Shown piece after piece: positions 10,273-34,491 of a DNA stretch of 64,000 bases (within the stretch, counting starts at the first letter, position 1; each line of letters begins with the position of its first letter). The translations under genes were made by a program, and so were the position numbers. The notes beneath the pieces were generated by a model. That model saw only the letters and a program-made list of their open reading frames with translations. It ran no database searches and had not been told where the DNA came from. The stretch lies in the sequence record OP744025, one strand, 5' to 3'. This DNA is from Escherichia phage A5-4.

Positions 10273-10382
10273 CTTGTTTCTCTCCCTTTCTCTCTTTCAT
10301 CGTTTAGTTTCGATAAGGTGATAGTACATCAACTAACCAATTATTATTTAGCAATTAGTGCTAAACGCCATAATCAATCTTA

Positions 10383-10625
10383 TTAATTTTCATTTAATAC
10401 CCTTAGTGCTCTCTTTTCACAAATATCCCTGAGCCTGATTACCTCTCCTATTAGATAGGAAATAGCCTTAGCTTGTACTGGTTCATCGTAATCCCCAACC
10501 GTCCCAAACACTTCATCGAGAGATAGGAAGAACTCTGAAGAGTAAATACTGTTTTGATCTTCTATAGCACGGTCTGCATTAAATTTAATATCTTCCAGGG
10601 CGCTATTACTGATATTCATAGTCAA
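10383..10625 (-). CDS. hypothetical protein
   Basis: 80 aa ORF, 4-nt overlap with the upstream gene. Confidence 0.45.
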   Translation of the reverse strand: MTMNISNSALEDIKFNADRAIEDQNSIYSSEFFLSLDEVFGTVGDYDEPVQAKAISYLIGEVIRLRDICEKRALRVLNEN

Positions 10626-11047: not shown

Positions 11048-11084
11048 ACCAGAATGAATCTGTGTGTCAACACTTTTTATTCAG

Positions 11085-11112
11085 GCAATAAAAAACCACC
11101 CCGAAGGGTGGC
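11085..11112 (-). terminator. rho-independent terminator
   Basis: Hairpin ccaccc-cgaa-gggtgg with T-run on the minus strand, just downstream of polymerase exon 2. Confidence 0.6.
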
Positions 11113-11129
11113 TTAAGATTAAAATTTCA

Positions 11130-11429
11130 TTAGTGACAATCTCCCCAGCTGTATCCACAAAGGTATTCTCCAGTTATCATCACTGGTGATTTCATCATCT
11201 TAGCTGCTTGTTCGACACAACGAACAACCATCTCTCCTACAGGGCAGTATGTAATAGTGAAGATACCATTTTCATCTGGATCACACTTAAACTTCCCTTC
11301 CTTCACGCAATGACCATCCAAGATCATTTTCTTAGCCAAGCAAGCTTCTACAAATTTCTTCGCGTCAGCTTCATTGTCAAAGGTCCAAGTCTTCTTAAAC
11401 TTGTGTGGCACTTCAAGCTGGTATTCATC
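11130..11429 (-). CDS. DNA polymerase (family A, T7 gp5-like), exon 2
   Basis: Frame of ORF 11130..11480 from GAT at 11429: DEYQLEVPHKF... ending ...GYSWGDCH, matching the family A C-terminus (T7 ...NWAICH); completes motif C when joined to exon 1. Confidence 0.7.
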   Translation of the reverse strand, partial: DEYQLEVPHKFKKTWTFDNEADAKKFVEACLAKKMILDGHCVKEGKFKCDPDENGIFTITYCPVGEMVVRCVEQAAKMMKSPVMITGEYLCGYSWGDCH

Positions 11430-12201
11430 CAAAAGTTTAACGAGGTCGTTACTCTCGCCCACATCATTACATGTTGCCATACGTTTTCACGTATGGATCG
11501 GACTATATCACCATCCTTTTCAGGATGCTCCCCATTTCGACGGCACTTGCTCGCCTACGCCTCTCGGCTAGTCTCTGAACGTTAGGACCATGTGTAGTCA
11601 CAAGAGATGTGTGTCCAGTTTTTACGGATTTTTATGGACCTTACCACGTTGTAAGGATAACCCATATCCCGAATCTGTGCACTTCCATAACCTTGCCCCA
11701 GGAAGTTGCAAATCTCTCTAACCTCTTCTTCGGTAACTATACTTCTGGCGTTATCAACCCCTGTTGCTGAACGACATTTATCAGCAAAGGTTTTCTTGAT
11801 ATTTCCACCACGAGTTGTCCATTGGAGGTTTGAATAGTGGTTATTCCTTTTGTCAGGCCACTTATGATCAACCTCCGGCAAACCTTCAGGGTTTGGTACA
11901 AAACACTCTGCCACCAAAACGTGAACAGCCTTTGTAGTCGTCCTTTTGTTGAGATACAGACTTACAATAAGATACCCACGTCCATTATCAACTGCCGCCA
12001 TTGGTTTCCCTCGACGACCTATAATGGTCCCGTCTTCATAAACCTTGTAACCGAAATAATCTTTATATTCCACATGATCCTCTTCGCTGCTGATTAACAT
12101 AGTCTCATACTAACTCACACTTGAATTAATATCAACCTTAGTCTTCCAGCAATTAAAGGAGTTTTCGATGTGAGTTACCTCACAAAGCCACAATGTTACT
12201 T
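11430..12201 (-). mobile_element. group I intron carrying an HNH homing endonuclease gene, inserted in polymerase motif C
   Basis: 772 nt between codons H and D of HDE. 5-prime exon ends in U, intron ends in G. Contains P-like AAUUGCUGGAAGACU (12139-12153), Q-like AAUCAGCAGC (12086-12095), R-like GUUCAGAGACUA (11566-11581) and S-like GAUAUAGUCC (11500-11511). Confidence 0.7.
11582..12100 (-). CDS. HNH homing endonuclease (intron-encoded)
   Basis: 172 aa; GYLIVSL...AVHVLVAECF...VDHKWPDKRNNHYSNLQWTTRGGN is an HNH-3 type signature; lies between the two polymerase exons. Confidence 0.75.
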   Translation of the reverse strand: MLISSEEDHVEYKDYFGYKVYEDGTIIGRRGKPMAAVDNGRGYLIVSLYLNKRTTTKAVHVLVAECFVPNPEGLPEVDHKWPDKRNNHYSNLQWTTRGGNIKKTFADKCRSATGVDNARSIVTEEEVREICNFLGQGYGSAQIRDMGYPYNVVRSIKIRKNWTHISCDYTWS

Positions 12202-14085
12202 ATGGTAATAGATAATACGTCTAACGCCTTCATCATACCAACCTTTCTTGACCAACTGCCAGTGCAGGAGGATACCCACCAAGTCAAACAGTGCAGCACC
12301 ACCATTCTGCTGATAAGCATTAAGCAATGAGTGTTTGGAACGAGTGTAGATCTTACGCCCATCCAGACCATAGATGAATCGCTTACCGTTAGCTTCCCAA
12401 AACTTCTCTAATGCTTCTTTACGACCTTTCAAGCCGATGTTGCTATCCCAGAATGCGTCGATTACTGCTTGGGCTTTCTCAAGACTGATACCAAGCATTG
12501 ATGCAATCTTCGCTGCCTGTGCCCCGTACATGATTCCGTATGTCACCCCTTTACCTTCGCCACGAGAAACCTTCTTCCCTGCTGCTTTGGTATATGCTTC
12601 TGCGTTTCGGGAGTGAGCATCTCCAGATTCCATGATACGAAGATAAGCACCGCCATCGAAATCATAAGCGCCCCATGCTGCGATCATGCCTTCCAAGTTT
12701 GAACCGTCGATACCTACCTGATATTTACCCTCAGAGGCTCTGAATAGTTCACGCATCTCTTTACCGAGAAGAACTTTCTCATCCGGCTTAGGTACGTTTG
12801 CTACGATCGTATGCTTACGACGACCTGTGTTAGTTATTCCACTATAACGGGCCGGAAGTTTACCGTCAACTCGTAGACGTGGATGGTTAAGCCATCCGGT
12901 ATCAACCTTCTCTTCTTTCAGCGGGTCAAGAACAGATCGTCGGTTACGTAAAGACAGCCATTTAACAATCTGTTTAGCCATTTCACCATCTACTCGCTCA
13001 AGGTTAGGGCAAAGACCTTGCTGATCCTTAAGTTGCGGGGATGTTGGCAATGCACGAGCTTTCTTACGGAAAAACTTGAACATCTTTTCTTTATCTGACC
13101 ACTGCTTAGGTGTGATCGCCAAGCTTTTCAGAATCAGATCACGATACTCCGTCTGATCCAAATCTTCAATGTATTGACGAACAATCAGATCAACCTCACT
13201 ATCAGGACGCTGTTTCTTGAACTGATCTTTAGTTGCATCCTTTGTACGCCAAATTGTTGGGACCCACCCTGCATCACGGATCAGGAACTTCTTAACGTCG
13301 TCCTGGTTACCAATACGCATCGGAATCATAATGTCCGGCATCTTTTGTTCTTTGATATCCATCAAAGCACGAGCCATATCTTCCGGCGGCAAAGGAACAA
13401 GTCCTTGCTGCTTAACGTTTTGTGCACGGATAAAATCACCCATTTTGGATTCATCCTCTACACCGTGCTCAACACAATACTTGATCGCGGCGGCAGTAAG
13501 AGATCCGTCAGCCTTAAACGGCTTACTTGGTGCACCTTTAAACTCCAAGGCTTCCCAATTGATATTATAACCTAACTTCTCTAACCATTTCCAACCTGTA
13601 CCGGAAAGAGATCCATCACCCTTGAAAGGTTTAGATGGGAATGTCGGTTGTGCTGATTTCGACATCTCTTTCTTCGGCAACTTAGGTTCAACCTCTAACT
13701 CAATGTCTGTCATCATCTTATCGATACGATCACGAAGCTTGAGTGCTTTTTCTTCATCAAATGAAACACCCTGAATTTCTTGCTCAATCATCAGGTAGTC
13801 AGTCAACATACCTCGACGCAGGGCATTCTTCCAGTTGATCATTTTATACTTCTTCTGATCTTTGTCTGTTTCATCCTTATACATGAAGCGTTTATCATCC
13901 GGCATAGATTCACAAGAGATCTCTTTCATCAGAGCATCCCATACCATTTCGTTGATAATTACGTCTTCAATAATACGATCGCAATACTTCCAAAGTGGAA
14001 GGCCACGCCAATCTTCGATCGCCACTTTCTGGTTAGCTACTCGCATACCCCAAGCTTCAAGCCCGTGTGGCCCTACAGGCTTCAT
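12202..14085 (-). CDS. DNA polymerase (family A, T7 gp5-like), polymerase part, exon 1
   Basis: HGLEAWGMRV matches T7 HALEAWGYRLG; Exo III-like YCDRIIEDV; motif B region SRGEGKGVTYGIMYGAQAAKI; reading frame ends ...RRIIYYH at the intron junction (track ORF 12196..14085). Confidence 0.8.
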
Positions 14086-14531
14086 TTTACCGTGACGGGG
14101 TTCTTTACCATCTCAGGACAACCGCGAGGCAGAGGGCGATCTGGATACAGTGTACGGGACATTGAAAGTGTATCGAAGATGTTTACTTGTTTACCATTAA
14201 TCGTACCCATGCAACCAGGGTCTGCAAACATATCGTAAGTTGTTCCAAGCATCTTCTTAAACAACTGGAGGTCGTAGCCGAAGATGTTGTGGATAGCAAT
14301 TGCTTTAGGCTCTGTGACAAACCACTCGTTTAATTCCTCAATGGTCCGAATCTTAAAGTTTTTACCTTTAGATTGGATAAATTTAACAGCTTGATCGTAA
14401 CCTTCCCGCTGGGGATCAAGAAAGATGTTCCAGTTATCTTTTTTATACTCTTTAAACAAGACGCAGTGAATCAGATCAACCTCTGTCAATAGACCATTCG
14501 CTTCCGCATCTCCAATAAATAAGCCTTTCAT
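14082..14531 (-). CDS. DNA polymerase 3-prime-5-prime exonuclease N-terminal part (Exo I/II), separate frame
   Basis: Exo I FIGDAEANGL and Exo II AIHNIFGYD align with T7 gp5 DIEAN / HNGHKYD. Likely start ATG 14531 with GAAGGAG RBS. Stop overlaps the next ORF start (ATGA at 14082-14085). Confidence 0.7.
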   Translation of the reverse strand: MKGLFIGDAEANGLLTEVDLIHCVLFKEYKKDNWNIFLDPQREGYDQAVKFIQSKGKNFKIRTIEELNEWFVTEPKAIAIHNIFGYDLQLFKKMLGTTYDMFADPGCMGTINGKQVNIFDTLSMSRTLYPDRPLPRGCPEMVKNPVTVK

Positions 14532-14696
14532 TTTTTCTCCTTCTTCAAGCTCCAACTAGACTAAAACAAAGCCCAGCCGGAGGTATGACCCTTCGGCTAG
14601 GTTATCAAAAGTGTCGGTATCCTTCATCAATAAAATAAAGCATCACTAACAGGGCGAATACCCCACATAAGAAGATCAAGCCCAATAAGGTGGGCA

Positions 14697-14972
14697 TCAG
14701 TCTTCTATTACCTCAAATTCACCACTAAAAGCTACGATAGTTTCACCGTAGCCCATGTTCAATCGGGCAGTTGTAGGTTTGCCATTCCTAGATAGATAGT
14801 ACACCCTCGCTTCGTAAATGTCACCAACTTTTACACCGTAAGCCTGTAGGTCTTTGTTATTGATATCTTTATTTTCAGCATTGATTATTCGAACACTGCT
14901 GATCTCTGAGTATACAGAATTATCTTTCATCAGTATTTTTCCTCTGGACGGAAAACTCCACGGCAAGCCCAC
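14697..14972 (-). CDS. hypothetical protein
   Basis: 91 aa ORF in block. Confidence 0.45.
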   Translation of the reverse strand: MGLPWSFPSRGKILMKDNSVYSEISSVRIINAENKDINNKDLQAYGVKVGDIYEARVYYLSRNGKPTTARLNMGYGETIVAFSGEFEVIED

Positions 14973-15214
14973 ATACTTGCTTCTTTGAGGCGATCTTTAG
15001 CCTTAGATAAGCAATCAGATGCAAAAAGCACGGAATCTAGATCCCCTTCGGGAATCGAAGAGTCATTAGCCAGTCGATTATATTCCTCAATAATCTCGTC
15101 TTCTAATGCTTTTAAAATAAGACCTAAACGAATTTCAGCATCTTTAATGGCATTCACCTTACCGATTTTTTCATCGGTGTGTGGTTTGTAGCCCTTAATG
15201 TCATCAATAGCCAT
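14930..15214 (-). CDS. hypothetical protein
   Basis: 94 aa ORF; start may be internal. Confidence 0.45.
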   Translation of the reverse strand: MAIDDIKGYKPHTDEKIGKVNAIKDAEIRLGLILKALEDEIIEEYNRLANDSSIPEGDLDSVLFASDCLSKAKDRLKEASMWACRGVFRPEEKY

Positions 15215-15696
15215 TACCAGTCCTCCTCTGTTTGTTCATACTCTGAAGGGGTGATGAAGTAATTCTGACCCCGCTTGCACTGGTTGAAAGTCCCAACATA
15301 CCAAGTACCGATATCCATGTTGATGAAAGTTTCTTCTTGAACAAAGATCAGATCAGCAAGATTATTGTCTGATCGTTGAGTCGCTAATAAAATATGCTCA
15401 AAATCTGCTAATGTCAGGTTATAACAGAAGCCGTCTTCGTCTTCCATGATTGCAACAACAGAACTACGCCCTTGGGTAAATTTACGAAACTGTAGACGTA
15501 AATGGCGATGCTCATGATCATTAGTCTTAACCTTTTTTCGATTTTCAAAGTATTCTTCGGAATAGTGTGGATGCTTTAATTTCAGTTTTTCAATTTCCTC
15601 AATAGAAAGAGCGTCCTTATCCCAACCAGTAAACCACTTACCATTATCATTAAATACCGCAGGGTATTTACGCTTACTTAAATCTTTAAACATCAT
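15214..15696 (-). CDS. hypothetical protein
   Basis: Track ORF 15214..15756 trimmed to internal ATG (MMFKDLSKRKYP...) to reduce overlap; start uncertain. Confidence 0.45.
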   Translation of the reverse strand: MMFKDLSKRKYPAVFNDNGKWFTGWDKDALSIEEIEKLKLKHPHYSEEYFENRKKVKTNDHEHRHLRLQFRKFTQGRSSVVAIMEDEDGFCYNLTLADFEHILLATQRSDNNLADLIFVQEETFINMDIGTWYVGTFNQCKRGQNYFITPSEYEQTEEDW

Positions 15697-16018
15697 AGTC
15701 CTCCCCATAAATATCTTGAATTTTTGAAACCAGGTATTCAGGATCACTACCATCATACCACACTTCTACGAAAACCTTTTGGGAATCCTTAACGATCTTT
15801 GCCCCTACTCTTTCAATCCCCTTAAAGAAAGATTGTAAGATGTAATCATCCAGCAAGTTCACCCCGTAAGCATCGTGGAGAGATTTCTCATCGTGAACAT
15901 ACACAACCATCTTACCATCGTAGGTGAGTTGGATATGGGGATCATCTTCCCAAGCAATAGCCGGAGAATCCGGCTCAAGCTTTGCGATAACCCCAATCGT
16001 CAAGCAGTTGTCACTCAC
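15686..16018 (-). CDS. hypothetical protein
   Basis: 110 aa acidic protein; ATGA-type overlap with the upstream gene. Confidence 0.5.
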   Translation of the reverse strand: MSDNCLTIGVIAKLEPDSPAIAWEDDPHIQLTYDGKMVVYVHDEKSLHDAYGVNLLDDYILQSFFKGIERVGAKIVKDSQKVFVEVWYDGSDPEYLVSKIQDIYGEDYDV

Positions 16019-17232
16019 TCCTTACCTCCTGCGATACGTAACATTTGGATAGTTTTCTCCAGTTCTTTACGAGGTTTGGCAACCAGGCGACGTTCATGTC
16101 GCTTAAGGAAACCCTCTAAAAACTCCAACGGTTTAAATGATAACACTTCCTGAACTGATTCGTCAACAGCATATTCTTTCTGGACCATACGATAAACCGG
16201 ATTCTTTACAGTTACCGGAGTATAACCCTTCGTGATCGCCATCTGAGTAACAACACGTTTCTTACCGTCGGTCCACGAATCGTCAATAGGGAAAGAATCT
16301 TTTCCGTATTTTTCAGCGAACAACTTAACTGCTGTCTTTGTCAGGTCGTCCTGATCTTCTTGTGACCGACTTTGACCCCAATAATAGCCACCAGAGGTCT
16401 TAGCACGACGTTCTGAGAACAAAGCAAGGTCATCGTACTGCTCAAGAGCTAAACGCGCCAGAAGTTCGATATCGTCGCTTTCTGACAGTAGTCGGTTTGC
16501 TTCGTACTTAACCTCAAAAGTATTTGCACTGTCACGATCACGGTCAAGAGTAAAAGCCTCTGGCTTAAAATCATAATCGAATTTAAAATTACCTGGAACA
16601 CGAGTAACGAACAGTCCATTTACAAACAGGTTGCAGTCGCCACCTGTGATAGAGCCATCCTCTTCTTCATTTTGGTATTCGTCCGCAGCATTGTATAGCT
16701 TAGTATAAGCTTTACCGCGGTCATTCTGAATAACGACTGTACGTTCAGTAGTTGGTGCATAGTTATCCATAATTTCCGACATAGCGTACTGAGGGATGTT
16801 TTCAATGATAACGGTCACAGTATTTGAATCACGACCCGATAAGGCGTTTTCATGGATATCCACCGCCAAAATGTTCTGTTCGTATGTGGTATCGTAAACC
16901 ATATTTGGAATCCAAAGATCATTACCATTTTCGATAACGATATCTGCGCCTTCACGAACAAGCACCAGAAGACCCACTTTCAGACCTTCACCAAACTTAC
17001 CGATCTTACTGTCATCATCACGTTTGGTTGAAACACCCATCAAAAGGCCGGAAACAGGAACAACACCGCCACGAGAGATGATTGTGATCTTACCTTGATT
17101 ACTATCATCATTCCCAAAATAAATATTGAAATCTTCTGTATCGATAGCATTTTGCATGAGTTCACGAGCACCTTGCCACCATGACCAGTGGCTGACGTAA
17201 TTTTCAGTGATGCTCAATTTAATCTGTTTCAT
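16015..17232 (-). CDS. GHKL (Bergerat-fold) ATPase-like protein
   Basis: 405 aa; N-box-like ELMQNAIDT and G2-box-like IGKFGEGLKVG; remainder unassigned. Confidence 0.45.
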   Translation of the reverse strand: MKQIKLSITENYVSHWSWWQGARELMQNAIDTEDFNIYFGNDDSNQGKITIISRGGVVPVSGLLMGVSTKRDDDSKIGKFGEGLKVGLLVLVREGADIVIENGNDLWIPNMVYDTTYEQNILAVDIHENALSGRDSNTVTVIIENIPQYAMSEIMDNYAPTTERTVVIQNDRGKAYTKLYNAADEYQNEEEDGSITGGDCNLFVNGLFVTRVPGNFKFDYDFKPEAFTLDRDRDSANTFEVKYEANRLLSESDDIELLARLALEQYDDLALFSERRAKTSGGYYWGQSRSQEDQDDLTKTAVKLFAEKYGKDSFPIDDSWTDGKKRVVTQMAITKGYTPVTVKNPVYRMVQKEYAVDESVQEVLSFKPLEFLEGFLKRHERRLVAKPRKELEKTIQMLRIAGGKE

Positions 17233-17244
17233 TTATTTGTCCTC

Positions 17245-17961
17245 TTATTTGTTGTATTGATAAATTGCTTCAGCTAAGCCCCGTGGGGTTAGTGACCGGA
17301 TCATCTTAGTTCTTGCTGACTTACCTCCTAACTTATTCTGCTGATCTGACCAACCAGGTGCAACAGGAACCGGAGAGGTTTTTGGAATTATAAACCCATT
17401 TCCTGTCCAAAGTCCAGTCTTTTTCGGATAAGCATCCCTTGGTTTAATGTATTGAGGAAAATAAGGGTTAACATCATTTACCGGAAGGTAACCGCCATAT
17501 TCCCAAGGGTTAAAATATACAGTAGGTTTTCGCCATTGTCCAGCTAAAACACTTACTGGGTTTTCAATCATATACGGACAATCGAAAACAAATTCAGCAA
17601 GCCAAGCTGCAATCTTCGCAGTTCTTACCGCCTTGACCTGGAAGAAAGGATCTTTTGCTTTCTTCGATGCAAAGTGACGAGAACCACTAACAGCCATATC
17701 GGTACATGGAGGATAGGCAAGGATCAGGTCCGGCGCAGGCAATCCTAAGTTCTCTACATTCTCCATCCATTCAATATCGATAAAGGCGTTAACGTAAGTG
17801 ATGTTGGGATGAATTTCCTTTACGCCTTCATAATCCCCGTGATCAGCATCGTCATAGTTGAAGCAGTAGCATTTGTGCCCTGCCTTCGCCCAGGGAAGAA
17901 CATCAATCCCTGAACCAGAAAAGAGACTCCAGATAATCTTTTTATTCATCGTAGCATCCAA
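17245..17961 (-). CDS. DNA cytosine-C5 methyltransferase-like protein (short form)
   Basis: 238 aa; motif I-like WSLFSGSGIDVL, motif IV-like LAYPPCTDMAVSGS, motif VI-like MIENPVSVL; no obvious target-recognition domain. Confidence 0.5.
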   Translation of the reverse strand: MDATMNKKIIWSLFSGSGIDVLPWAKAGHKCYCFNYDDADHGDYEGVKEIHPNITYVNAFIDIEWMENVENLGLPAPDLILAYPPCTDMAVSGSRHFASKKAKDPFFQVKAVRTAKIAAWLAEFVFDCPYMIENPVSVLAGQWRKPTVYFNPWEYGGYLPVNDVNPYFPQYIKPRDAYPKKTGLWTGNGFIIPKTSPVPVAPGWSDQQNKLGGKSARTKMIRSLTPRGLAEAIYQYNK

Positions 17962-18254
17962 ATAGTGGTTAATTTACAAATACACCAGAAAATCCCGATC
18001 AGTGTAGCCAGAGTAATAACACAAGTCAATACTATAGGTAAGAATATCGTCATAATCACTGCAAAGACTGAAATACCTATGCTTGCAATAAGATCCGGCA
18101 CGAAATAGTGAAATGGATCTCTTGCCTTTTTAATGTTGTCCCATGTTATTACTACGGAGCTAAGGACGAGCCAGAATAAAAAGTACAAAATGCAAGGAAA
18201 TAAAGTCATGTGTGACTTAACCATATCAAACCACATGTTGTAGAATTCAATCAT
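17946..18254 (-). CDS. hypothetical membrane protein
   Basis: 102 aa, three hydrophobic segments. Confidence 0.5.
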   Translation of the reverse strand: MIEFYNMWFDMVKSHMTLFPCILYFLFWLVLSSVVITWDNIKKARDPFHYFVPDLIASIGISVFAVIMTIFLPIVLTCVITLATLIGIFWCICKLTTIWMLR

Positions 18255-18574
18255 TCAGTTTTCCTCGGTACAGATGCAATAACAGCCTTTTCGACGAGAC
18301 ATACAATAAATCTCCCAATCCCTGCCAAAAGGAGAGCAAAGACTGTAAAAGGCAACCCATAAATAAGAACCAAAATCATCAATCCAAAACAAGCGGAAAA
18401 CAGGACTTCTGTGCCTAGCCACATTTTGGAGTAATTGATATAATTATGCCGCAATTTTAAAAACAGTCCAGCAATAGAGCCTACAGAAAATATACCAATC
18501 AACCAAGGTGCAGTTACAAATGAACGACTGAACCCTTCCCAAAAAACAAAAACATTAATGATTGCTTCGATCAT
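18251..18574 (-). CDS. hypothetical membrane protein
   Basis: 107 aa, hydrophobic segments; 4-nt overlap. Confidence 0.5.
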   Translation of the reverse strand: MIEAIINVFVFWEGFSRSFVTAPWLIGIFSVGSIAGLFLKLRHNYINYSKMWLGTEVLFSACFGLMILVLIYGLPFTVFALLLAGIGRFIVCLVEKAVIASVPRKTE

Positions 18575-18825
18575 AAACCATACCTCGCTTCATATAAGAA
18601 TTCATCAAGATCTTTACTGTCGTCGGAACCTTCTACTGTCAACGGCATCAGGTGTTCTTTGAAATAATAGCAAAGATTGCCGGAACTCGTTTCCACTAAA
18701 CATGTGGTTTTGCAAACCATCTTAACTTTCACCGATAGTCCCGCATCTTCATGGCTGTGGACCATTGCAAGACAACCATCATAAAGCTTATCCTCGTAAG
18801 GTAAGCAAGGATCTGGATTTTTCAT
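18571..18825 (-). CDS. hypothetical protein
   Basis: 84 aa ORF, 4-nt overlaps on both sides. Confidence 0.45.
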   Translation of the reverse strand: MKNPDPCLPYEDKLYDGCLAMVHSHEDAGLSVKVKMVCKTTCLVETSSGNLCYYFKEHLMPLTVEGSDDSKDLDEFLYEARYGL

Positions 18826-19118
18826 CGTGAACTTTCCTCCTCCGCATGTTTACGCACCCATTCTACACGGGACGCGTTCAGGTGTTTGTTATCGTCGTAG
18901 TGATACGCTTTCCAACCTTCGTCGAAAGGGAACTCCCAGTTCAGTCCGGCATCGGTAAACTGTTGCTGCATCTCTTTGAGTAACTTATAGTCACACTCTG
19001 AAAACTCTTCCAGTGCGTTACACAGACCGCAGGTCCGATCAAACGTCTCGGAGTGTGGTGCACCAGCGTCAAGCCACTCAGCATAGGCTTTATAGAATGC
19101 TTTAAGTTGCTCGCTCAT
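18822..19118 (-). CDS. hypothetical protein (paralog of 8320..8646)
   Basis: 98 aa; AFYKAYAEWLDAGAP...GLCNAL...DAGLNWEFPFD shared with 8320..8646. Confidence 0.5.
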   Translation of the reverse strand: MSEQLKAFYKAYAEWLDAGAPHSETFDRTCGLCNALEEFSECDYKLLKEMQQQFTDAGLNWEFPFDEGWKAYHYDDNKHLNASRVEWVRKHAEEESSR

Positions 19119-19514
19119 TTATTTATCCTCTGCATATGCAATCTTAGTCATGTAGTCAATACAATCATATTGAACATTGTGGCTATTAAAAACAGCCTTG
19201 TCTTTGTAAATAACTTGCCAATAATCAATGCTTTCAATTTCGGAAAGGTATGCAACACACTCCCCTTTTGGATTAATAAGTTCAACTCGATCAGTTTCTC
19301 GTAATTTCCAACCAGTAGGTAACTGAACAGCTTGTTCCTTAAAAATCACAATATCGTCACGGTGACCAGTTGCCCTTTTAAATGCCCGCAGTAATTCTTT
19401 GTATTCACGATATTTCACATAAAGGCCGTCCTCTGATTTTTCCATACGGGCTTCATTGATATTGCAATTACCATCCATATCTCCAACCAGGTCGTAACGA
19501 TATACAGGTTTCAT
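19119..19514 (-). CDS. hypothetical protein
   Basis: 131 aa ORF in block. Confidence 0.5.
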   Translation of the reverse strand: MKPVYRYDLVGDMDGNCNINEARMEKSEDGLYVKYREYKELLRAFKRATGHRDDIVIFKEQAVQLPTGWKLRETDRVELINPKGECVAYLSEIESIDYWQVIYKDKAVFNSHNVQYDCIDYMTKIAYAEDK

Positions 19515-19723
19515 TTTTTAACTTTCTCCTTTTTCTCAGGTTTTACATCGCAAACTTTTTGTTGATAACTGATCGGTGTTACATAGCGCCACGTCTTTTT
19601 AAGGTTCTCAACGAGGATTCGCATTTGTTCCTCATCAGCACCCCAGCCTGCGGTATGTGCTATTTCATCAACACTCATCTGGCATTTAACGTACCATCTT
19701 GTAATTGTCTTCGATTGTATCAT
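19511..19723 (-). CDS. hypothetical protein
   Basis: 70 aa ORF, 4-nt overlap. Confidence 0.45.
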   Translation of the reverse strand: MIQSKTITRWYVKCQMSVDEIAHTAGWGADEEQMRILVENLKKTWRYVTPISYQQKVCDVKPEKKEKVKK

Positions 19724-19750
19724 TATCGTTTCCTTGAGGTCAAGAGATTT

Positions 19751-20047
19751 TTATTTAATACCTAATTCTTTTGCACTGTAAATATCATTACCTTCATAGC
19801 CTTTGTAGTAGATCAGGATATCTTTGACAATCTCTCCCGTCGGTCCGCTCCGGCGAGTACGTGGTCGCTGTGCATTGACCAAATAAACTTCACCACGAGT
19901 ATTTATTTTTGTTGTACGATGGCCTTCGACAAAGGTCAAAGTTGTATATGCAGGAACCTTAACAAGAACTTCTACCTGGTCACCAGCAGTATTCTGTTGT
20001 TCATTTGCCATATCATCTTTAACAACAGTAGTCATAAGTTTGGTCAT
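19751..20047 (-). CDS. hypothetical protein
   Basis: 98 aa ORF in block. Confidence 0.45.
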   Translation of the reverse strand: MTKLMTTVVKDDMANEQQNTAGDQVEVLVKVPAYTTLTFVEGHRTTKINTRGEVYLVNAQRPRTRRSGPTGEIVKDILIYYKGYEGNDIYSAKELGIK

Positions 20048-20049
20048 TT

Positions 20050-20373
20050 TTATTCTCCTTTGTTCAGTGTGGATACGAATTCGATATAAGATTCTGCATT
20101 TCGTTTATGATAAATCTTAGGGTAACTTTCGGTTACTTTGCTGTATTTGATGTATCGCTCAAACATACCGACGACACCACCAATGGAATGCACAACAACG
20201 CCCTCTTCACCAACAAAGGTAACAACCTCTACGAATGGAGTATTATCGTAAGAGCGATTTACAATCAGGTCGCCAACTTCAAATTCGATTTTATCATTTT
20301 GTGAGTAGTACATTTGTTTTCTCCTTTCTGTTTGGTATGGGAGAAGTATAGGGAAGTTTGATGAGGGTGTCAA
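20050..20373 (-). CDS. hypothetical protein
   Basis: 107 aa ORF in block. Confidence 0.45.
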   Translation of the reverse strand: MTPSSNFPILLPYQTERRKQMYYSQNDKIEFEVGDLIVNRSYDNTPFVEVVTFVGEEGVVVHSIGGVVGMFERYIKYSKVTESYPKIYHKRNAESYIEFVSTLNKGE

Positions 20374-20405
20374 TAGAAAAAACCGCCCGAAGGCGGTTTA
20401 TTTTT
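20371..20405. terminator. bidirectional rho-independent terminator
   Basis: Hairpin ccgccc-gaag-gcgg flanked by A-run and T-run, immediately downstream of the helicase gene; same hairpin recurs at 62178-62193. Confidence 0.6.
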
Positions 20406-20409
20406 AGGA

Positions 20410-21516
20410 TCAGAAAGGTGCGTCGTCGTCCCAATCATCCGGCTCTGTGTCCGGCACATCAGGAATATCACCTGTGGATTCAACGATACTTTGTTGTTCC
20501 CACGTAGGTTCTTCTGAAGGTTGTTCCATTTCTTCCATAACCTTCTTGATCTCTTCCTCTTGCTCACGCAGGAAGTTATCATCCGGCTCAGGAATATCTT
20601 CCTCTTTAATATCTGAACGAGTGAGATCACTGTTTTGTTCAGACAGAGGTTGAATCTCTGCTGCTTTAGGCTTAAAGTCTGGAGAACGATGATCATCTTC
20701 TGGATGAGCGGCATACCACTCACGAAGAGTTTCATAAGGACTCTCTAAGAAGCCCTCTGGCGGTTCCAGATAATCACCCGTGTCAATGTCATAGAACACA
20801 GGGAATTTACCAGCACGACCGTGTTTACGGTCATCCAGAATAACAAAGTAAGAAGTGTTACGTTGTTTCATCGGGAGTTCTGGATCTTTGTTACGTTCAA
20901 TACCCCACATGTAATAAGTGTTACGCATCATTGCACGGCTACCAGCAAACTGCGCTGACTGGACTTGACCACCAAATTCATGAGGCTTACCAGATTCAGG
21001 CTTGTTAAGGTGACAGAAGCAATAATAGGTAAAGCCAAGCTCTTTTGCCAGTTTGGAGATCTCATCAGAGAATCGTTCCAGTTCCTGGTTAGCTTCGGAA
21101 GCACTCATACCTTGCACAAGACGAGTGATTGGGTCAATAAAGATATCTTCACAACCTTCTACGATCACTGCGTGACGGATAGCACCTTTCAGTTCATCCC
21201 ATACTGCACGACCATAGTTGTTATAATAGATAACACTATCACCAACTTCATCAGTAGCCTTGATCAGTTCTTCTTGCTTAAAGTAGCCACGTTGACCTTC
21301 AAATACTTCATTACCCCAAATGTCACGGAAAGTTCCATCTTCTTGAGGAATCATTACCTTTTCTGCGTTAACAAAGTCTTTATGATAACGCTTACCTGCG
21401 ATCTTTTTACAGGTAATTTCGTTCTCTTCTTCAAACTTAAACACCGCAGCCTTTGACTTCTCAATACCTGTAATGTGTTCTACCATCTGGTTAAGAAGTT
21501 CAGACTTACCCATTTT
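20410..21516 (-). CDS. primase-helicase (T7 gp4-like), helicase domain, exon 2
   Basis: Begins within Walker A (..KMGKSELL); CFCHLNKPESGKPHEFGGQVQSAQFAGSRAMMRNTYYMWGIERN aligns with T7 gp4 [32 protein letters not shown]...IALERN; acidic C-terminus ...DDWDDDAPF. Exon start uncertain by a few nt. Confidence 0.75.
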   Translation of the reverse strand, partial: KMGKSELLNQMVEHITGIEKSKAAVFKFEEENEITCKKIAGKRYHKDFVNAEKVMIPQEDGTFRDIWGNEVFEGQRGYFKQEELIKATDEVGDSVIYYNNYGRAVWDELKGAIRHAVIVEGCEDIFIDPITRLVQGMSASEANQELERFSDEISKLAKELGFTYYCFCHLNKPESGKPHEFGGQVQSAQFAGSRAMMRNTYYMWGIERNKDPELPMKQRNTSYFVILDDRKHGRAGKFPVFYDIDTGDYLEPPEGFLESPYETLREWYAAHPEDDHRSPDFKPKAAEIQPLSEQNSDLTRSDIKEEDIPEPDDNFLREQEEEIKKVMEEMEQPSEEPTWEQQSIVESTGDIPDVPDTEPDDWDDDAPF

Positions 21517-22268
21517 CACCGTTATGTTCGACAGGGTTCGCTACTCCCTGCCCGTTCTCTTACGAACTGCTACATGTCCCCATGCAGACCAGACTATATC
21601 TTCAACCTGTTTCCAGGTGCTATGCACTTCGGACCGCTTGGCCCTACTCTACTCGATTCAAGAGTCTAGCTCTTGTCTTTCGATAGTCGTTGCTCCTTCC
21701 TCTCAACCGCTTTGTAATTTGTCTTACGGTATCTCTGTGTATCCCAAAATGCTCTGCAATTTCTTTTTGTTGAAGCGTGGTATTAATAACCATTTCGTAA
21801 ACCTGCTTCTCAAAATCATCAGCATATCTATTTGGATTTCTTCTACCGTTGGCCCAACCATGATCGACATTTTCTTTCGTGGTTGTCCATTCCAAATTAA
21901 CATCGTTGTTGTTTTGCCTGTCGCTATCTTTATGATTAACAACAGGAAGGTTATGAGGGTTATCAACGTAGTGTTCAGCCACCAATTGGTGAATAAATCT
22001 ACGTGTAACCTTACCATCTTTACTTAACGAAACTCTAAGATACCCTGAACTATTGGTATCCGGTTTGAGTTTTTTAAGCTTCCGGTAAACATCTCCCCTT
22101 CGGGTAATGATGTAATTTTCAAAACCTTTTATTCTTTTCATTTCCCCCCCTTGCAATAAACAAAGAGGTTGAGAGGCTTGGATCAGGATTACGTGTTCTA
22201 CGCTTCCCCTGAGTTCACATAGTATTTAGTCGAGGCATCTCTGCCAAGGCTGGCTAGACTTAATGTTT
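21517..22268 (-). mobile_element. group I intron carrying an HNH homing endonuclease gene, inserted in helicase Walker A codons
   Basis: About 750 nt between ...FIGAG and (K)MGKS...; S-like AAGAUAUAGUCU (21591-21606); R-like CAACGACUAUCG (21681-21695); candidate P/Q in the 5-prime part (CUCAGGGGAAGCG, AAUCCUGAUCC). Boundaries approximate. Confidence 0.6.
21644..22156 (-). CDS. HNH homing endonuclease (intron-encoded)
   Basis: 170 aa; GYLRVSL...FIHQLVAEHYVDNPHNLPVVNHKDSDRQNNNDVNLEWTTTKEN is an HNH signature; probable true start at the internal ATG (MKRIKGF). Confidence 0.75.
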   Translation of the reverse strand: MQGGEMKRIKGFENYIITRRGDVYRKLKKLKPDTNSSGYLRVSLSKDGKVTRRFIHQLVAEHYVDNPHNLPVVNHKDSDRQNNNDVNLEWTTTKENVDHGWANGRRNPNRYADDFEKQVYEMVINTTLQQKEIAEHFGIHRDTVRQITKRLRGRSNDYRKTRARLLNRVE

Positions 22269-23204
22269 ACCAGCACCGATGAAGTAACCTTCACCTGGAC
22301 GACGACCCAAGGTAAGCTTGGTCATGGTGGGCCAAGGGAACTTCTTGCCGAGTTTAGGGATCTCATGTGCCTTTTCGCGGAACTGTGAATAAGTCGAGAA
22401 ACCATCCGGCACATATTCCTTTGGCTTCATTGCAGCCCAAAACAACTGATCAGAAAGTCCTTTGTTATACATGTCGCAAGGGTCCATATCTTCTGGAATG
22501 TCCACGACCTTCATTTGTGGAATTACAGAGTATACCGCTGCAACTGCATCTTTACCTTTCATGATCCCTTTGGCCTTCTCTGCTTCTGTCGCACGGTCAG
22601 CATCGAAAGCTACGATAATCTCTTCAAACTTACTCAGAAGCTTATAGTTATTCTTCTGTGATAAGTTTTGCACGGCATTGGATGTACCGTTAGAGATAGA
22701 TACAACTGTGAAGTTTGGTTTACGAGTGGAACCATCCTTCGGTTTGTACTTCTCTGTCAATACCTGCCACAAGATTGCAGCATCATATTCACCTTCAGTG
22801 ATAAAGATCATACGTTTGGAAGACTTATTTGCACCTTCCAGCCCAAACATATCACAAGCCACAGATTGGAAACCAATAGTTGTAAAGTGACCTTTCTGTT
22901 GCTTAGGGATCGTAAGATCACGCTTCTTAAAACCTACAACCTTACCTTCTAATGTATACGGGAAATAATGTGCTTCTGGTGTCATACCGTCTTTAGCTGA
23001 CAGTTTGGTACGAATACCAAATCGTTTAGCTGTCTTTTCGTCGATACCGCGCTCAGGGATACTTTTGCACGGGTAAGTCAATACGTCTTCAACTGTTTCT
23101 TCTACACGAGACACACCACCACCATAATTACGTGCTACTGAAGCTTTAGGATTTTTATGTCCAAACTTATAACCGCCAAACAAACTTTCGCCAATAGTGC
23201 TCAT
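22269..23204 (-). CDS. primase-helicase (T7 gp4-like), primase (TOPRIM) domain, exon 1
   Basis: KRMIFITEGEYDAAIL, VVSISNGTSNA, IIVAFDADRATEAE, EYVPDGFSTY and TLGRRPGE align with T7 gp4 TEGEIDMLTV, VVSLGHGASAA, ILMFDMDEAGRKA, PWIPDGVVS, TLGARGGE. No N-terminal Cys4 zinc-binding domain. Frame stops 3 codons after the proposed splice site. Confidence 0.75.
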
Positions 23205-23361
23205 TACTGCTCCTTGATCATCGTCGCCAAATAAATAGTGTTACCGTTTGAATTAATACCTGCTGTTACAGGACCCATCAATTTATAACCATAATCGTAA
23301 TGCTTCAGTATATATTTCTGAAGAGACAATAGATTTGTATACGATAGGATCTTAATGTCCA

Positions 23362-23670
23362 TCAAAAACCTCCAGTTTCTTCATCAAATGCCTGACTTAC
23401 TTGTGCATCACGGATACGTTCTTCAATACAACGATACACTACTTCATACGGGATATCAAGAGCAATTTCTTCACCATCTTCATAAACAGTGATTGAAAAA
23501 ATATCTAAGTAATCTTCGGCATCCCAATCTGACTCTGCATCTGGAATACCTTTGTACATAACAACCTCTACTTCAACAACCACCTCTTTACCGATCGCCT
23601 TATGAAAATGTGTGAATTCGAAGTTTACTGTACGCATTTTATTTTCTCCTGATAATTTATATTTATTCAA
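23362..23670 (-). CDS. hypothetical protein
   Basis: 102 aa acidic ORF. Confidence 0.45.
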   Translation of the reverse strand: MNKYKLSGENKMRTVNFEFTHFHKAIGKEVVVEVEVVMYKGIPDAESDWDAEDYLDIFSITVYEDGEEIALDIPYEVVYRCIEERIRDAQVSQAFDEETGGF

Positions 23671-26329: not shown

Positions 26330-26489
26330 GGGTTAAGATCATTGCCATATACATTACAATAGAAGTCACGCTGATTTCAATGAAAACCTCGTCGGTTACA
26401 TGATCAAAGTAAGCATCCTTTACATATCTGACACCTACTAGCCAAAATGTCATAACTACAGCAAATGTCAGTATCATGCGTTTTATCAT
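26277..26489 (-). CDS. small two-TM membrane protein (holin-like candidate)
   Basis: 70 aa with two hydrophobic segments and a basic C-terminus (EKRKNKVTK); ATGA-coupled downstream of the wall hydrolase gene. Confidence 0.4.
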   Translation of the reverse strand: MIKRMILTFAVVMTFWLVGVRYVKDAYFDHVTDEVFIEISVTSIVMYMAMILTLVAAEMLYEKRKNKVTK

Positions 26490-27001
26490 TTCTTTTTCTC
26501 CTCTTTGTCTTTGTAAAAGATGTGATTTTCTATGGTGACTGTTCTTTTTAGAAGTTTACGCCAAACAGGTTTAACCTTCTTAGTATGATAGTACAGAGAT
26601 CCGTGTGTTGGGTCAAACCTTTTATACAAAACCTCATTATTTTTTATCTTGTGTACAAACTTGGAGATGCTTAGAGCGCCCTCCCAGGAATCTTTATCGG
26701 TTATGCTATAAGAGGATTTAGTTAATGTCCATGAGAACTGAGAGGCTTGATATACAACCCCTTTCATTGTCCTTGGGAATTTATCATTTTTCATCCGATT
26801 CATTGTAACAAAGGCAACAGCCATTTGCCCATTTATTGTCTCACCTCGTGACTCCATATAGACATTACAGGCCAAGGCATTTACAGAATTATCCTTTTTG
26901 GTACATTTATGAATAACCTTCTGTGCTCTCTCTTTGGCATAAGTGACGCCTGGTGCCAGAGACAGAGTACAAATCAAACCACATAAAACTAATTTTTTCA
27001 T
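26486..27001 (-). CDS. secreted cell-wall hydrolase (SleB / Hydrolase_2-like)
   Basis: Signal-peptide-like MKKLVLCGLICTLSLAPGVTYA; NVYMESRGETINGQMAVAFVTMNR resembles the SleB-family core. Confidence 0.55.
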   Translation of the reverse strand: MKKLVLCGLICTLSLAPGVTYAKERAQKVIHKCTKKDNSVNALACNVYMESRGETINGQMAVAFVTMNRMKNDKFPRTMKGVVYQASQFSWTLTKSSYSITDKDSWEGALSISKFVHKIKNNEVLYKRFDPTHGSLYYHTKKVKPVWRKLLKRTVTIENHIFYKDKEEKKK

Positions 27002-27047
27002 TTTTCCTCCAATTGAGGACCCAGCTTATCACTGGGTCACCCTCTTG

Positions 27048-27434
27048 TCAACTACCTTCGATATGCTTCTGAATTTGATCAGCAATGCCTTTCCATAAAC
27101 CATTAAGGAAAGGGTTACTTGTGATGATTTCGCCCAACCAAGGGCCATACAGGCGGTATACGTAGTCATCTGTGATCGCATAGATACTTCCATCACGTAC
27201 AGCAAGACCACGTACAAGGGAGGTTGTTACACGACGACCTGCAAACCCCGTCTTTTGGTATTCCAGTTCAGAATGTTCAATATAACCTACCAGATTTACC
27301 AGATTTTGAGTTCCATCAATTGCAAACCCACATTTCTTTTCAAGGTCTTCTGAAATCTTACTGATCCCCTCTAATGCGAAGTTACCTCCAAATTTTAGGC
27401 CGTACTTAGCTGCAAGTTTATCGTGCGCTGTCAT
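27048..27434 (-). CDS. hypothetical protein
   Basis: 128 aa ORF. Confidence 0.45.
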   Translation of the reverse strand: MTAHDKLAAKYGLKFGGNFALEGISKISEDLEKKCGFAIDGTQNLVNLVGYIEHSELEYQKTGFAGRRVTTSLVRGLAVRDGSIYAITDDYVYRLYGPWLGEIITSNPFLNGLWKGIADQIQKHIEGS

Positions 27435-32470: not shown

Positions 32471-32817
32471 TTTACCTCCATCATAAATACTTTAACTTTT
32501 CGTACCTCTAATCTTACTTTATTAGAGCCTTGAAGTCTATTTCTTTTTTCAATTGCGTCATTAATGTCGCCATAGAAGTAGTGATCCTTACCTATTGTTG
32601 GTATTCCATTGCCGCCTTGCATAGCCAGTGTATACATTTCTTTTCCACCTTGCAACCCTTTTGATACTTTTTCTTCAAAATATTTATTGAATTGGGTTGG
32701 TGAAGTGTCAATTTCTACATCATCTTCCCATCCCATAACTTTATCCCAAAAACGGTCAATCTTGTCAAGAACTTTGTTACTAATCTTTTTAATCTTCTTC
32801 AACATAATCTTCCCCAT
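32467..32817 (-). CDS. hypothetical protein
   Basis: 116 aa ORF, 4-nt overlap. Confidence 0.45.
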   Translation of the reverse strand: MGKIMLKKIKKISNKVLDKIDRFWDKVMGWEDDVEIDTSPTQFNKYFEEKVSKGLQGGKEMYTLAMQGGNGIPTIGKDHYFYGDINDAIEKRNRLQGSNKVRLEVRKVKVFMMEVK

Positions 32818-33277
32818 TATTTATTTGGATACCGAAACGATTTTCGTTAGTGGAAAAGAAACCATTTTCCATGCGGCGAATCTCTTCTTTCATCACTTCC
32901 TGCATCGTTAATTTAAGGATTTCTTTGTTTAATTTTGGCTTAACTTCACGGAGCTTGTCAAGAAGTTTTTCCATTTCTTCTTTTACTTTTTCTTCCTCAT
33001 TTTCTACCTCTAATTGGTCCATTGCATCTTTACAAACACAGCAATGGCCCACAACTCTTAAAATATGATTTTGTATAGGTAATGCTTTTCTTCCACAATA
33101 CCCACAAACAATAGACCCACCGGAGGACCGGGCATCTATCGTCAATGTAGGCTTGGCCCCTTCTGCTTGAGAATGCCAAGTCTTTTTACCCTGGTAATCA
33201 TACATAAAGAATTCGTAGGATCTTTCATCAACGTGGTCTTCGAGCATATGTAAAGTTCGTGTATTGAAATGTTTCAT
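32789..33277 (-). CDS. hypothetical Cys-rich protein (zinc-ribbon-like)
   Basis: 162 aa; CGYCGRK...GHCCVC cysteine cluster plus a Glu/Lys-rich helical tail; first gene of the leftward block. Confidence 0.5.
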   Translation of the reverse strand: MKHFNTRTLHMLEDHVDERSYEFFMYDYQGKKTWHSQAEGAKPTLTIDARSSGGSIVCGYCGRKALPIQNHILRVVGHCCVCKDAMDQLEVENEEEKVKEEMEKLLDKLREVKPKLNKEILKLTMQEVMKEEIRRMENGFFSTNENRFGIQINNGEDYVEED

Positions 33278-33397
33278 TTTTAACTCCTCGTCGTTTGTAT
33301 GTGCTAACTATACGAGAACTTGAGGGGAAGATCAATACTTGATTTGCATTTTATTTTCATTATACTGTGCACATCTAAAACGAGAAGGAGATGACAA

Positions 33398-33961
33398 ATG
33401 AGTCAAGATAAAGAGTTAGCCATTGCGATATCCGTAGCTGCTTCTGCCCATGTTGACCAAGTAGATAAAGGGGGGAATATCTATATTCTTCATCCTTTGC
33501 AGGTGATGCAAACATTGCAGCAAAAGGGAAGGGAAGATTTAATGGCAGCAGGAGTTTTGCATGATGTGATTGAAGATACTGAAATCACTATGGAACACCT
33601 CTTTAAAAAGGGGATTTCAGAAAGAACCTTAGTGATTGTCGATGCAGTGACAAAGAAACGTAAGCAATCTTCATCTGATTACCTAGAGGGGATTTTAGAG
33701 AGTGAGGGTGCTTGTCATGTTAAGCTTGCGGATCTTAAACACAACTTAGATATTCTGCGAACTTGTAGCACCACAGAAAAAGACTTGCAACGGGTCAGGA
33801 AGTATGTAACAATGCACTTGTTGATTACGGAGATGGTTGATTGGTATGAAAGTATCGGAAGGTATCTCGATTATTGTGATTCTTTTGCCTATTCTAGCTA
33901 TCTCGACGAACGTAAAGAATTTGTTCAGAAACTTATTAAAAAATGGAAGGAGTTTAAATGA
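33398..33961 (+). CDS. small alarmone hydrolase (SpoT/RelA-type HD-domain (p)ppGpp hydrolase-like)
   Basis: 187 aa; ILHPLQV, AAGVLHDVIEDT and VKLADLKHNL align with SpoT hydrolase motifs (ITHP, LLHDVIEDT, IKLADRTHNMRTL). Confidence 0.75.
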   Translation: MSQDKELAIAISVAASAHVDQVDKGGNIYILHPLQVMQTLQQKGREDLMAAGVLHDVIEDTEITMEHLFKKGISERTLVIVDAVTKKRKQSSSDYLEGILESEGACHVKLADLKHNLDILRTCSTTEKDLQRVRKYVTMHLLITEMVDWYESIGRYLDYCDSFAYSSYLDERKEFVQKLIKKWKEFK

Positions 33962-34491
33962 AAAAGGTATTGAGTATTGAGCCGTTCACAACAACATACT
34001 TTGACGATTTGGAACGTCATGGTGATTATGGGGTACAAGACGCTGATGGTTGGAAAGAATTCCCTGAAGAAACAAAAGGTGACATTACAAAGCTCGGTTG
34101 TAAGATCAATGGATCTGAACCAAAAGGTGTTTACACCATGTTTTCTTTCCTTGAAGCTATGAACCCAATGTACAAGGGAGATCGGCAATTTGGTTTTTCT
34201 TTTGCATCATTCCTTACTTGTAGCTGTGGTCATGGGGGTTGTGCAGGCTATCATGATAATGTGGTTATTCGACGTAAAAAGAATACCGTGATGGTCATGG
34301 GTAAAAAGGAAGATGGTTATGACGAAGGTGTTGTATTGACAGGTGAATCTGTTGTATACTTCGATAAAAAGCAGTGGGACGGTGTTCTAGAACACTACCT
34401 TAAACTCTTCAAAGAAAATCCTGATGGTGTTTTTGAAGATGCGGGTTTTATGTTTACTGGTCGTTGGGGGACTAAAAATTTTTCAAAATAA
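33958..34491 (+). CDS. hypothetical protein (ATGA-coupled to the alarmone hydrolase)
   Basis: 177 aa; CSCGHGGCAGYH Cys/His cluster; start overlaps the upstream stop. Confidence 0.55.
   Translation: MKKVLSIEPFTTTYFDDLERHGDYGVQDADGWKEFPEETKGDITKLGCKINGSEPKGVYTMFSFLEAMNPMYKGDRQFGFSFASFLTCSCGHGGCAGYHDNVVIRRKKNTVMVMGKKEDGYDEGVVLTGESVVYFDKKQWDGVLEHYLKLFKENPDGVFEDAGFMFTGRWGTKNFSK

Follow-up and report, generated by a model that had tools for sequence, protein, structure and literature searches.

A gp4-type primase-helicase without a zinc-binding domain in Escherichia phage A5-4 and in an apparently large clade of related phages

A stretch of 64,000 nucleotides of DNA from Escherichia phage A5-4 (sequence record OP744025), referred to here at its full length as the window, carries on its minus strand an intron-split gene for a primase-helicase of the type represented by phage T7 gp4. 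The zinc-binding domain (ZBD) at the N-terminus is absent in cis from this primase-helicase, and no homologous gp4-type ZBD is coded elsewhere in the window, in the rest of the related phage A7_1, or in phage rV5. Comparison with related sequences places the protein in what is, from its alignments and phylogeny, a large and old clade that has lost the N-terminal Cys4 ZBD, its members including Vequintavirinae (rV5 as well as phiTE and CR9 from Certrevirus) and the Vibrio phage ICP1; within its phage group the window protein is an ordinary member. The chances appear about evenly balanced that the protein is a catalytically active primase that starts primers without a zinc ribbon.

The source phage is an E. 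coli myophage of about 140 kb belonging to the Vequintavirinae. The window DNA is 94-98% identical to that of phages A7_1, W70, A73, UPEC06 and LTH01, and the protein of the primase exon is 87% identical to that of Certrevirus phage phiTE. The open reading frame (ORF) 22260..23204(-), which begins with MSTIGESLFGGYKFGHK here as in a preliminary description of this DNA, is exon 1 of the gene and is incomplete alone. The exon limits were set by the intron-less allele of A73 (junction ...GAG/VKMGKS): nucleotides 1-935 of A73_82 match window positions 23204..22270 and nucleotides 936-2046 match 21520..20410. Coding exon 1 thus covers only 22269/70..23204 of the ORF, whose last codons, K-H-stop, are a read-through into the intron, since the intron sits within the Walker A codons. 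The predicted spliced primase-helicase has 681 amino acids, the same length as the uninterrupted A73_82, annotated as "DNA primase/helicase". Its parts are as follows.

22269..23204 (-): exon 1, residues 1-311 and the first bases of codon 312, holding the tail, the RNA-polymerase domain and the linker, together with Walker A as far as GAG, its first half
23100..23204 (-): N-terminal tail, residues 1-35, rich in Lys, Tyr and Gly, predicted to be disordered, free of Cys, and standing in place of the ZBD and linker
22395..23099 (-): primase RNA-polymerase domain, residues ~36-270, an N-terminal subdomain plus a TOPRIM fold, from phmmer, Foldseek and residue conservation
22887..22919 (-): hairpin loop, extended and basic, residues 96-106, DLTIPKQQKGH, set between two strands within the N-terminal subdomain; clade-specific
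22557..22589 (-): basic insertion of ~11 residues, residues 206-216, TEAEKAKGIMK, just after the DxD metal-binding motif; clade-specific
20410..21519 (-): exon 2, residues 313-681, completing Walker A (VKMGKS) and holding the SF4/DnaB-like helicase domain as well as the C-terminal tail
20413..20778 (-): C-terminal tail, long and acidic, with ...DDWDDDAPF at its end, from the translation

As judged from its alignments and predicted fold, the encoded protein is a bifunctional primase-helicase of the T7 gp4 type in all but the ZBD. Residues 51-529 of the spliced protein align with T7 gp4 residues 83-512 (phmmer against all PDB sequences, E 6e-20), and the preliminary description had likewise found that the alignment with T7 gp4 runs only from the RNA-polymerase (TOPRIM) domain onward. 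In an AlphaFold2 model built on a 17-sequence alignment, residues ~40-270 form a confident fold, and residues 1-32 stay below a pLDDT of 50. Within the PDB, this predicted fold is matched best by the T7 primase structures 6n9x and 1nui (Foldseek E 1e-10 to 7e-12), and next by catalytic cores of bacterial DnaG and by Twinkle. Profile scores are weaker for the primase domain, where Pfam Toprim_2 reaches 18.9 bits against a cut-off of 22.1, than for the helicase, for which the spliced A73 protein passes the DnaB_C gathering score (31.9 versus 27 bits); the SF4 helicase domain is joined to the primase domain in one polypeptide only once the intron is removed.

The likeness extends to individual residues. 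The T7 residues E157, D161, D207, D209, D237, K122 and R124 have catalytic roles known from the structure of the T7 primase. In the A5-4 protein the acidic residues of this set correspond, in order, to E137, D141, D201, D203 and D241, and the basic residues K122 and R124 to K93 and R95 (T7 numbering read from the 6n7i alignment). At its other end the protein has an acidic C-terminal tail with a terminal aromatic residue, and the homologues of rV5, ICP1 and KPP10 likewise close with PF after an acidic stretch. In T7 gp4 a tail that is acidic and ends in Phe binds the DNA polymerase; the tail of the A5-4 protein, similar in character, is much longer.

Absence of the ZBD is evident at several levels. 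Nothing in the spliced protein corresponds to the T7 ZBD and linker, the phmmer alignment beginning at T7 residue 83, and residues 1-50 hold one Cys (C46) and one His (H16), so that four zinc ligands are impossible there. The preliminary description had proposed a gp4-like primase domain without a Cys4 zinc ribbon and had reported none in the upstream ORF 23362..23670, and both observations stand: neither of the upstream ORFs 23204..23365 and 23362..23670 has a Cys4 motif or a Pfam match. A ZBD encoded upstream in frame, or behind a further intron, was also sought and none was found, as the frame is closed by a stop 11 codons upstream of the ATG, the interval offers no alternative start codon, and six-frame searches of the window were negative. 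The primase ATG itself overlaps the stop of the upstream ORF (ATGA).

The choice of model is important for these negatives. Pfam-A reports no zinc-ribbon family for the proteins of phages KPP10, Bas94 and PhiCHU, which clearly bear a ZBD. Negative Pfam results therefore carry no weight in this regard, nor can Pfam architectures separate ZBD-bearing from ZBD-less primase-helicases. A hidden Markov model (HMM) custom-built from 61 ZBDs of related gp4-type primase-helicases was used instead, and it scores the same three control proteins at 32-39 bits. With this model, no gp4-type ZBD was detected in six frames of the window (best E = 0.011, second knuckle only), in the remaining 81 kb of A7_1, the closest complete genome at 96% identity (best E = 0.13), or in the complete rV5 genome, likewise read in six frames (best E = 0.25), and the flanks of three metagenomic relatives together with 5.7 kb around ICP1 gp57 gave out-of-frame noise only.

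A trivial explanation would be that the N-terminus is mis-called or that the gene is a decaying pseudogene, the real protein having a ZBD. The gene is indeed interrupted, and the annotations of A7_1 and W70 list each piece as a hypothetical protein of its own. Against this stand the in-frame stop and the translationally coupled start described above, the lack of a coded ZBD in any frame of the window, the existence of an intact intron-less allele, and 72 independent ZBD-less cluster representatives that begin with Met and a tail of at least 12 residues. Moreover, the N-terminus is identical in A73, A7_1 and W70: exon 1 differs from these phages at 19-33 nucleotides with zero amino-acid changes, tail included, every substitution being synonymous. 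By this measure the primase-helicase is under purifying selection, and an annotation or pseudogene artefact is so improbable as to be effectively excluded.

The preliminary description did not recognize that loss of the domain is common to a large clade including rV5, phiTE and ICP1 and is not specific to the window. All 24 of the 24 close homologues lack a ZBD, one of them carrying the JGI label "twinkle protein". For a broader view, a primase-only profile was made from naturally intron-truncated homologues and searched against 1.84 billion cluster representatives, giving 1902 matches at E <= 1e-3. Among the best 150 of these 1902 matches (50%-identity representatives), 82 are without a ZBD, defined by the lack of an N-terminal extension and by no more than one Cys ahead of the domain, 61 have one, and 7 are ambiguous or fragments; the sample is biased to the query's own clade, so that these proportions are not population estimates. 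The ZBDs of the 61 ZBD-bearing representatives are of two sequence types. Both states are also found in complete phage genomes, with rV5 ORF230 and ICP1 gp57 lacking the domain and KPP10, the N4-like Bas94 and PhiCHU bearing it. A neighbor-joining tree of the RNA-polymerase domain, calculated for 143 sequences that include the window protein and those of rV5, ICP1, KPP10, Bas94 and PhiCHU, gathers 79 of the 82 ZBD-less sequences into one pure clade with the window protein, rV5 ORF230 and ICP1 gp57, and Fitch parsimony on this tree gives four changes with a ZBD present at the root.

How far the primase domain of these proteins remains functional can be approached from residue conservation, compared here in 85 ZBD-less and 64 ZBD-bearing sequences. 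In the ZBD-less set the active-site residues are kept almost throughout (E137 and G138 each in 84/85, D141 in 79/85, D201 and D203 each in 82/85), and the rates for catalytic residues are alike in ZBD-less and ZBD-bearing representatives. Nor was a substitute enzyme found. Searched with a profile of the RNA-polymerase domain, the window, the rest of A7_1 and rV5 showed no further TOPRIM primase, and no AEP, PrimPol or DnaG family was seen among about 20 large ORFs scanned with Pfam and PHROGs. The annotation of rV5 has a single primase, and a single primase is likewise listed for Certrevirus CB7 (PMC7344957).

Loss of the ZBD is accompanied by distinctive changes in the remainder of the protein. 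The hairpin that follows the KxR motif has a median of 11 residues in ZBD-less sequences versus 6 in ZBD-bearing ones and has in the clade the motif KKRD(L/W)TxPK...HF; its K101 is found in 75/85 ZBD-less versus 23/64 ZBD-bearing sequences, and its D96 and H106 are nearly clade-specific. A second, Lys-rich insertion of ~11 residues with the pattern TxxE(K)xKG(I/V)x(K/R) follows the DxD motif in about 70 of the 85 ZBD-less sequences (E209 in 63, K212 in 46, K/R216 in 69), its columns being gaps in 44-60 of the 64 ZBD-bearing sequences, depending on the column, and the spacing from D203 to D241 accordingly differs, with a median of 37 versus 26 residues. The third element is the N-terminal tail, which precedes a conserved ETVEDVxxYP anchor and has a median of 21 amino acids across the ZBD-less clade. 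It is enriched in Lys (16.6% versus 9.4% in the domain) and Tyr (8.5% versus 4.1%) and almost devoid of Cys (0.1%), and an aromatic residue lies within its first 10 positions in 68 of 72 sequences versus 55.3 +/- 3.2 in shuffles. In ZBD-bearing relatives the second CxxC is followed by a (D/N)PY..K segment to which the tail is similar, a likeness that would fit a clean deletion of the ribbon.

These features suggest a way in which the spliced protein could work as an active primase, independent of zinc and attached to a helicase ring of its own. The jobs of the ZBD in T7 that would have to be taken over are the holding of the template and the nascent dinucleotide and the hand-off of the primer to the polymerase. 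The replacement might consist of three parts, namely the extended basic hairpin, the Lys-rich 11-residue insertion beside the DxD metal site, and the flexible Lys/Tyr-rich tail, probably helped by attachment to the helicase ring on the lagging strand; template specificity would probably differ from that of T7 or be lower. That the whole clade, from Vequintavirinae and ICP1 to many uncultured phages, primes its lagging strand without a zinc ribbon, and that two basic insertions around the active site together with the tail have replaced the ZBD in holding template and primer, is offered as a tentative proposal, somewhat less probable than not. An analogy comes from the primase-polymerase of phage NrS-1, likewise a phage primase without the usual zinc finger, in which an internal loop functionally replaces the zinc finger (PMC8718748). 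The NrS-1 enzyme is an AEP-type PrimPol, unrelated in fold, rather than a TOPRIM primase, and loop replacement is experimental there and deduced by comparison in the A5-4 clade.

Several points weigh against active priming by this route. The natural, ZBD-less 56-kDa form of T7 gp4 is a full helicase without template-directed primer synthesis (PMC2910064) and, as the closest biochemical precedent and the strongest counter-argument, argues that the RNA-polymerase domain alone does not prime. The literature yielded no biochemical test of any ZBD-less member of the clade. The suggestion that insertions and tail take over the role of the ZBD comes solely from their co-occurrence with its loss and is correlative, a non-homologous DNA-binding partner would escape the custom ZBD HMM, and the tree is a rough neighbor-joining one drawn from the biased sample described above.

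The first of these points leads to a different view of the domain, in which it does not prime and has been retained to load the helicase, to shape the hexamer or to contact the polymerase, much as in metazoan Twinkle and the T7 56-kDa form, with lagging-strand primers coming from host DnaG, from transcripts or from recombination-dependent initiation. Residues of the T7 primase domain are described as essential for loading of the hexamer onto DNA (PMC9198812), and animal Twinkle as having helicase activity only (PMC3610141). The latter source, however, attributes the loss of priming in animal Twinkle to sequence changes in the primase domain. In the ZBD-less clade, the metal-binding acidic and the basic residues of the active site are kept in 79-84 of 85 representatives, as in ZBD-bearing primases, which would be unexpected for a purely structural domain, and the window, A7_1 and rV5 yielded no further primase gene. 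With the active site so conserved, a non-priming role appears unlikely.

Template recognition could also be supplied in trans by a separate phage or host protein that is non-homologous to the gp4 ZBD or too diverged to be recognized. Such an arrangement is feasible, since separately expressed zinc-finger and RNA-polymerase domains of the Arabidopsis Twinkle primase complement in trans and T7 primes in trans between subunits (PMC10557236), and since in some jumbo phages a DnaG-like primase is accompanied by a primase-type zinc ribbon that stands alone (PMC7824862). Moreover, the genome has many small ORFs without assigned function, a few of them with Cys motifs. The negative HMM scans described above, which took in the window, the remainder of A7_1 and the complete rV5 genome in six frames, speak against a partner of gp4 type, and no candidate ORF was found that tracks the ZBD-less clade. 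The small ORFs adjoining the primase gene are not common to rV5, ICP1 and the metagenomic relatives, those that flank it having no tblastn match in rV5, ICP1 or the metagenomic loci. A separate factor is thus considered quite unlikely.

Individual candidates for such a factor were considered and rejected. The best match of the custom HMM in the window, the ORF 45637..45963(+), encodes 95-108 amino acids ending ...DDDEEDGHYCNRCGSYS, and in its final residues it looks like the second knuckle of gp4 ZBDs of one type. The match is marginal (E 0.011) and restricted to one knuckle, as only the C-terminal "DGHYCNRCGSY" fits. The ORF is shared at 65-89% identity with unrelated coliphages (the jumbo phages PBECO4 and 121Q as well as phi92 and phAPEC8) and therefore looks like a horizontally exchanged, host-specific accessory gene; no match to it was reported in rV5, ICP1 or Certrevirus genomes. 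Two other locations had been named in the preliminary description as small Cys-rich ORFs that might encode the missing domain, and neither could be sustained. One of them, 6682..7301, is not a single ORF, the Cys-containing piece there being 78 amino acids long and without a relevant Pfam match. The other, 32789..33277(-), is the first gene of a leftward transcription unit and encodes 162 amino acids with a zinc ribbon-like motif (CGYC-x16-HCCVC), a coiled coil and a C-terminus of acidic character. No primase zinc-ribbon model matches this protein, which belongs to PHROG families without assigned function; its homologues occur in Certrevirus, phAPEC8-like and PAK_P3-like phages, the last of these being Pseudomonas phages and relatives of the ZBD-bearing KPP10.

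Outside the window, the C-terminal zinc ribbon of rV5 ORF 99 was also rejected as a ZBD, as this protein is a DnaQ-like exonuclease subunit and the syntenic gene of A7_1 is a different exonuclease. The rV5 gene (26361..27344) is annotated as "DNA polymerase exonuclease subunit", belongs to phrog_403 and has a ribbon of the form CxxC-x23-CxxC; its syntenic counterpart in A7_1 (33271..34380) belongs to phrog_107.

The preliminary description had suggested that priming may depend either on a separate factor or on a different mechanism. Taken together, the failure to find a gp4-type ZBD in trans, the conservation of the catalytic residues and the presence of the clade's own basic insertions favor a different mechanism, one that would be intrinsic to the primase-helicase, over a separate ZBD-like factor.

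Comparison with known systems helps to define what is unusual about such a protein. With the 63-kDa form of T7 gp4 (PDB 1NUI, 1Q57, 5IKN, 6N7I) it shares the TOPRIM RNA-polymerase domain with its acidic residues, the linker, and the SF4 helicase with a Walker A GxGKS, a CHL(K/N)xP motif and a GSxAxxR arginine-finger motif, and in both phages the replication module also includes a gene for a family A DNA polymerase. It differs in having a disordered, Lys/Tyr-rich tail of 35 residues instead of the Cys4 ZBD, two basic insertions in the RNA-polymerase domain, and a gene split by a group I intron. The T7 56-kDa form, which starts internally at Met64, has the same domain content of RNA-polymerase and helicase domains without a ZBD, but is made alongside the full-length protein, whereas in A5-4 the ZBD-less form is the only product and its lineage has retained that form, with an intact active site, over deep divergence. 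Metazoan mitochondrial Twinkle is also of gp4 type, with an N-terminal region that no longer has a working zinc finger. The animal protein is a helicase only, from changes in its primase domain (PMC3610141), whereas the catalytic residues of the A5-4 protein are all conserved and its ZBD is missing rather than degenerated. The DnaG-like primases of jumbo phages (Iyer et al. 2021, PMC7824862) are likewise TOPRIM primases without a fused zinc ribbon, but there the ribbon is a separate gene, of which none was detected in the A5-4 window, A7_1 or rV5. TtDnaG2, considered as a further ZBD-less precedent, proved to bear a ZBD (PMC5634424).

The interruption of the gene involves two further features.

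21520..22268 (-): group I intron of 749 nucleotides within the Walker A codons, preceded by U and with a final G
21644..22156 (-): intron-encoded HNH homing endonuclease (NUMOD4 + HNH_3 + HTH), from Pfam matches all below gathering scores

The 749-nucleotide insert is, from its predicted core and its boundaries, a group I intron. Exon 1 ends ...GGT and the intron ends ...AACG, and the Rfam model RF00028 matches the intron over the GAAGAUAUAGUC core with 24.6 bits (E 7.5e-4), under the gathering score of 50. The homing-endonuclease ORF has its likely ATG at 22141, downstream of a G-rich ribosome-binding site. The HNH-bearing intron is present at this site in the window and in A7_1 and is precisely missing from the otherwise collinear, intron-free alleles of A73 and LTH01. 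Phage W70 has an ORF-less intron of 283 nucleotides at the same Walker A site (W70 locus 4032..4314) and a second, HNH-bearing intron of 841 nucleotides at the arginine-finger motif GSRAMMR (W70 locus 4918..5758), and many metagenomic homologues are truncated exactly at the Walker A or arginine-finger motif (~300-325 and ~490-537 amino acids). From such patterns the primase-helicase gene is evidently a hot spot for mobile introns. Around the insertion site, the codons of intron-bearing and intron-less alleles (window 22260..22285 and 21505..21525 (-) versus 4015..4050 of the intron-less allele) differ by synonymous changes only (GGT GCT GGT GTG AAA versus GGG GCT GGG GTC AAG), as expected for co-conversion tracts or for cleavage-resistant variants of the homing site.

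Other parts of the window show related and unrelated features of interest. The gene of the family A (T7-like) DNA polymerase is also in pieces, with ORFs 14082..14555 and 12196..14085 (-) within 11582..14555, and an HNH endonuclease ORF (11582..12100) lies directly downstream of this split gene, which probably carries further introns, as reported for Certrevirus CB7. The region from ~42500 to 61300 extends for about 19 kb without an ORF of at least 150 amino acids and is dense in small plus-strand ORFs; promoter-like TTGCAA-N17-TATAAT sequences are found within it, for example near 45970..46000, and early genes are probably located here. Near 33.5 kb, at the point of divergent transcription, the sign of the GC skew switches. 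Two paralogous RCC1-repeat (β-propeller) proteins, an unusual cargo for a phage, are encoded at 62211..63353 (-) of the window and at 722..1921 of A7_1, and an adjacent operon, 34562..37899 (+), includes a DUF2201 metallopeptidase/VWA-like protein. The window contains no tRNA genes and no Rfam match at gathering score.

Although the searchable library was incomplete, a full-text literature search found no description of a ZBD-less clade of phage gp4 proteins. The sequences of rV5, phiTE and ICP1 have been public for years, labeled simply "primase/helicase", and ICP1 gp57 has been treated as a T7-like helicase-primase without comment on the ZBD (PMC7145576). Labels such as "DNA primase/helicase" thus conceal two architectures, and Pfam zinc-ribbon models miss ZBDs that exist.

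In the accepted view for bacterial DnaG and T7 gp4, the ZBD is needed for template recognition, stabilization of the dinucleotide and primer hand-off. A deep and diverse clade that dispenses with the ZBD yet keeps every catalytic residue under purifying selection represents a natural experiment on the minimal needs of a TOPRIM primase, and one that can be followed in genetically tractable members such as ICP1 gp57 and rV5 ORF230, with the intron-less A73 allele suited to expression. A zinc-independent primase-helicase of low specificity could also serve in primer-free isothermal amplification. The clade probably primes DNA synthesis by a route not yet studied; if the proposal outlined here is true, this would be a second, zinc-independent route of initiation for primases of the DnaG family, probably with relaxed or different template specificity.

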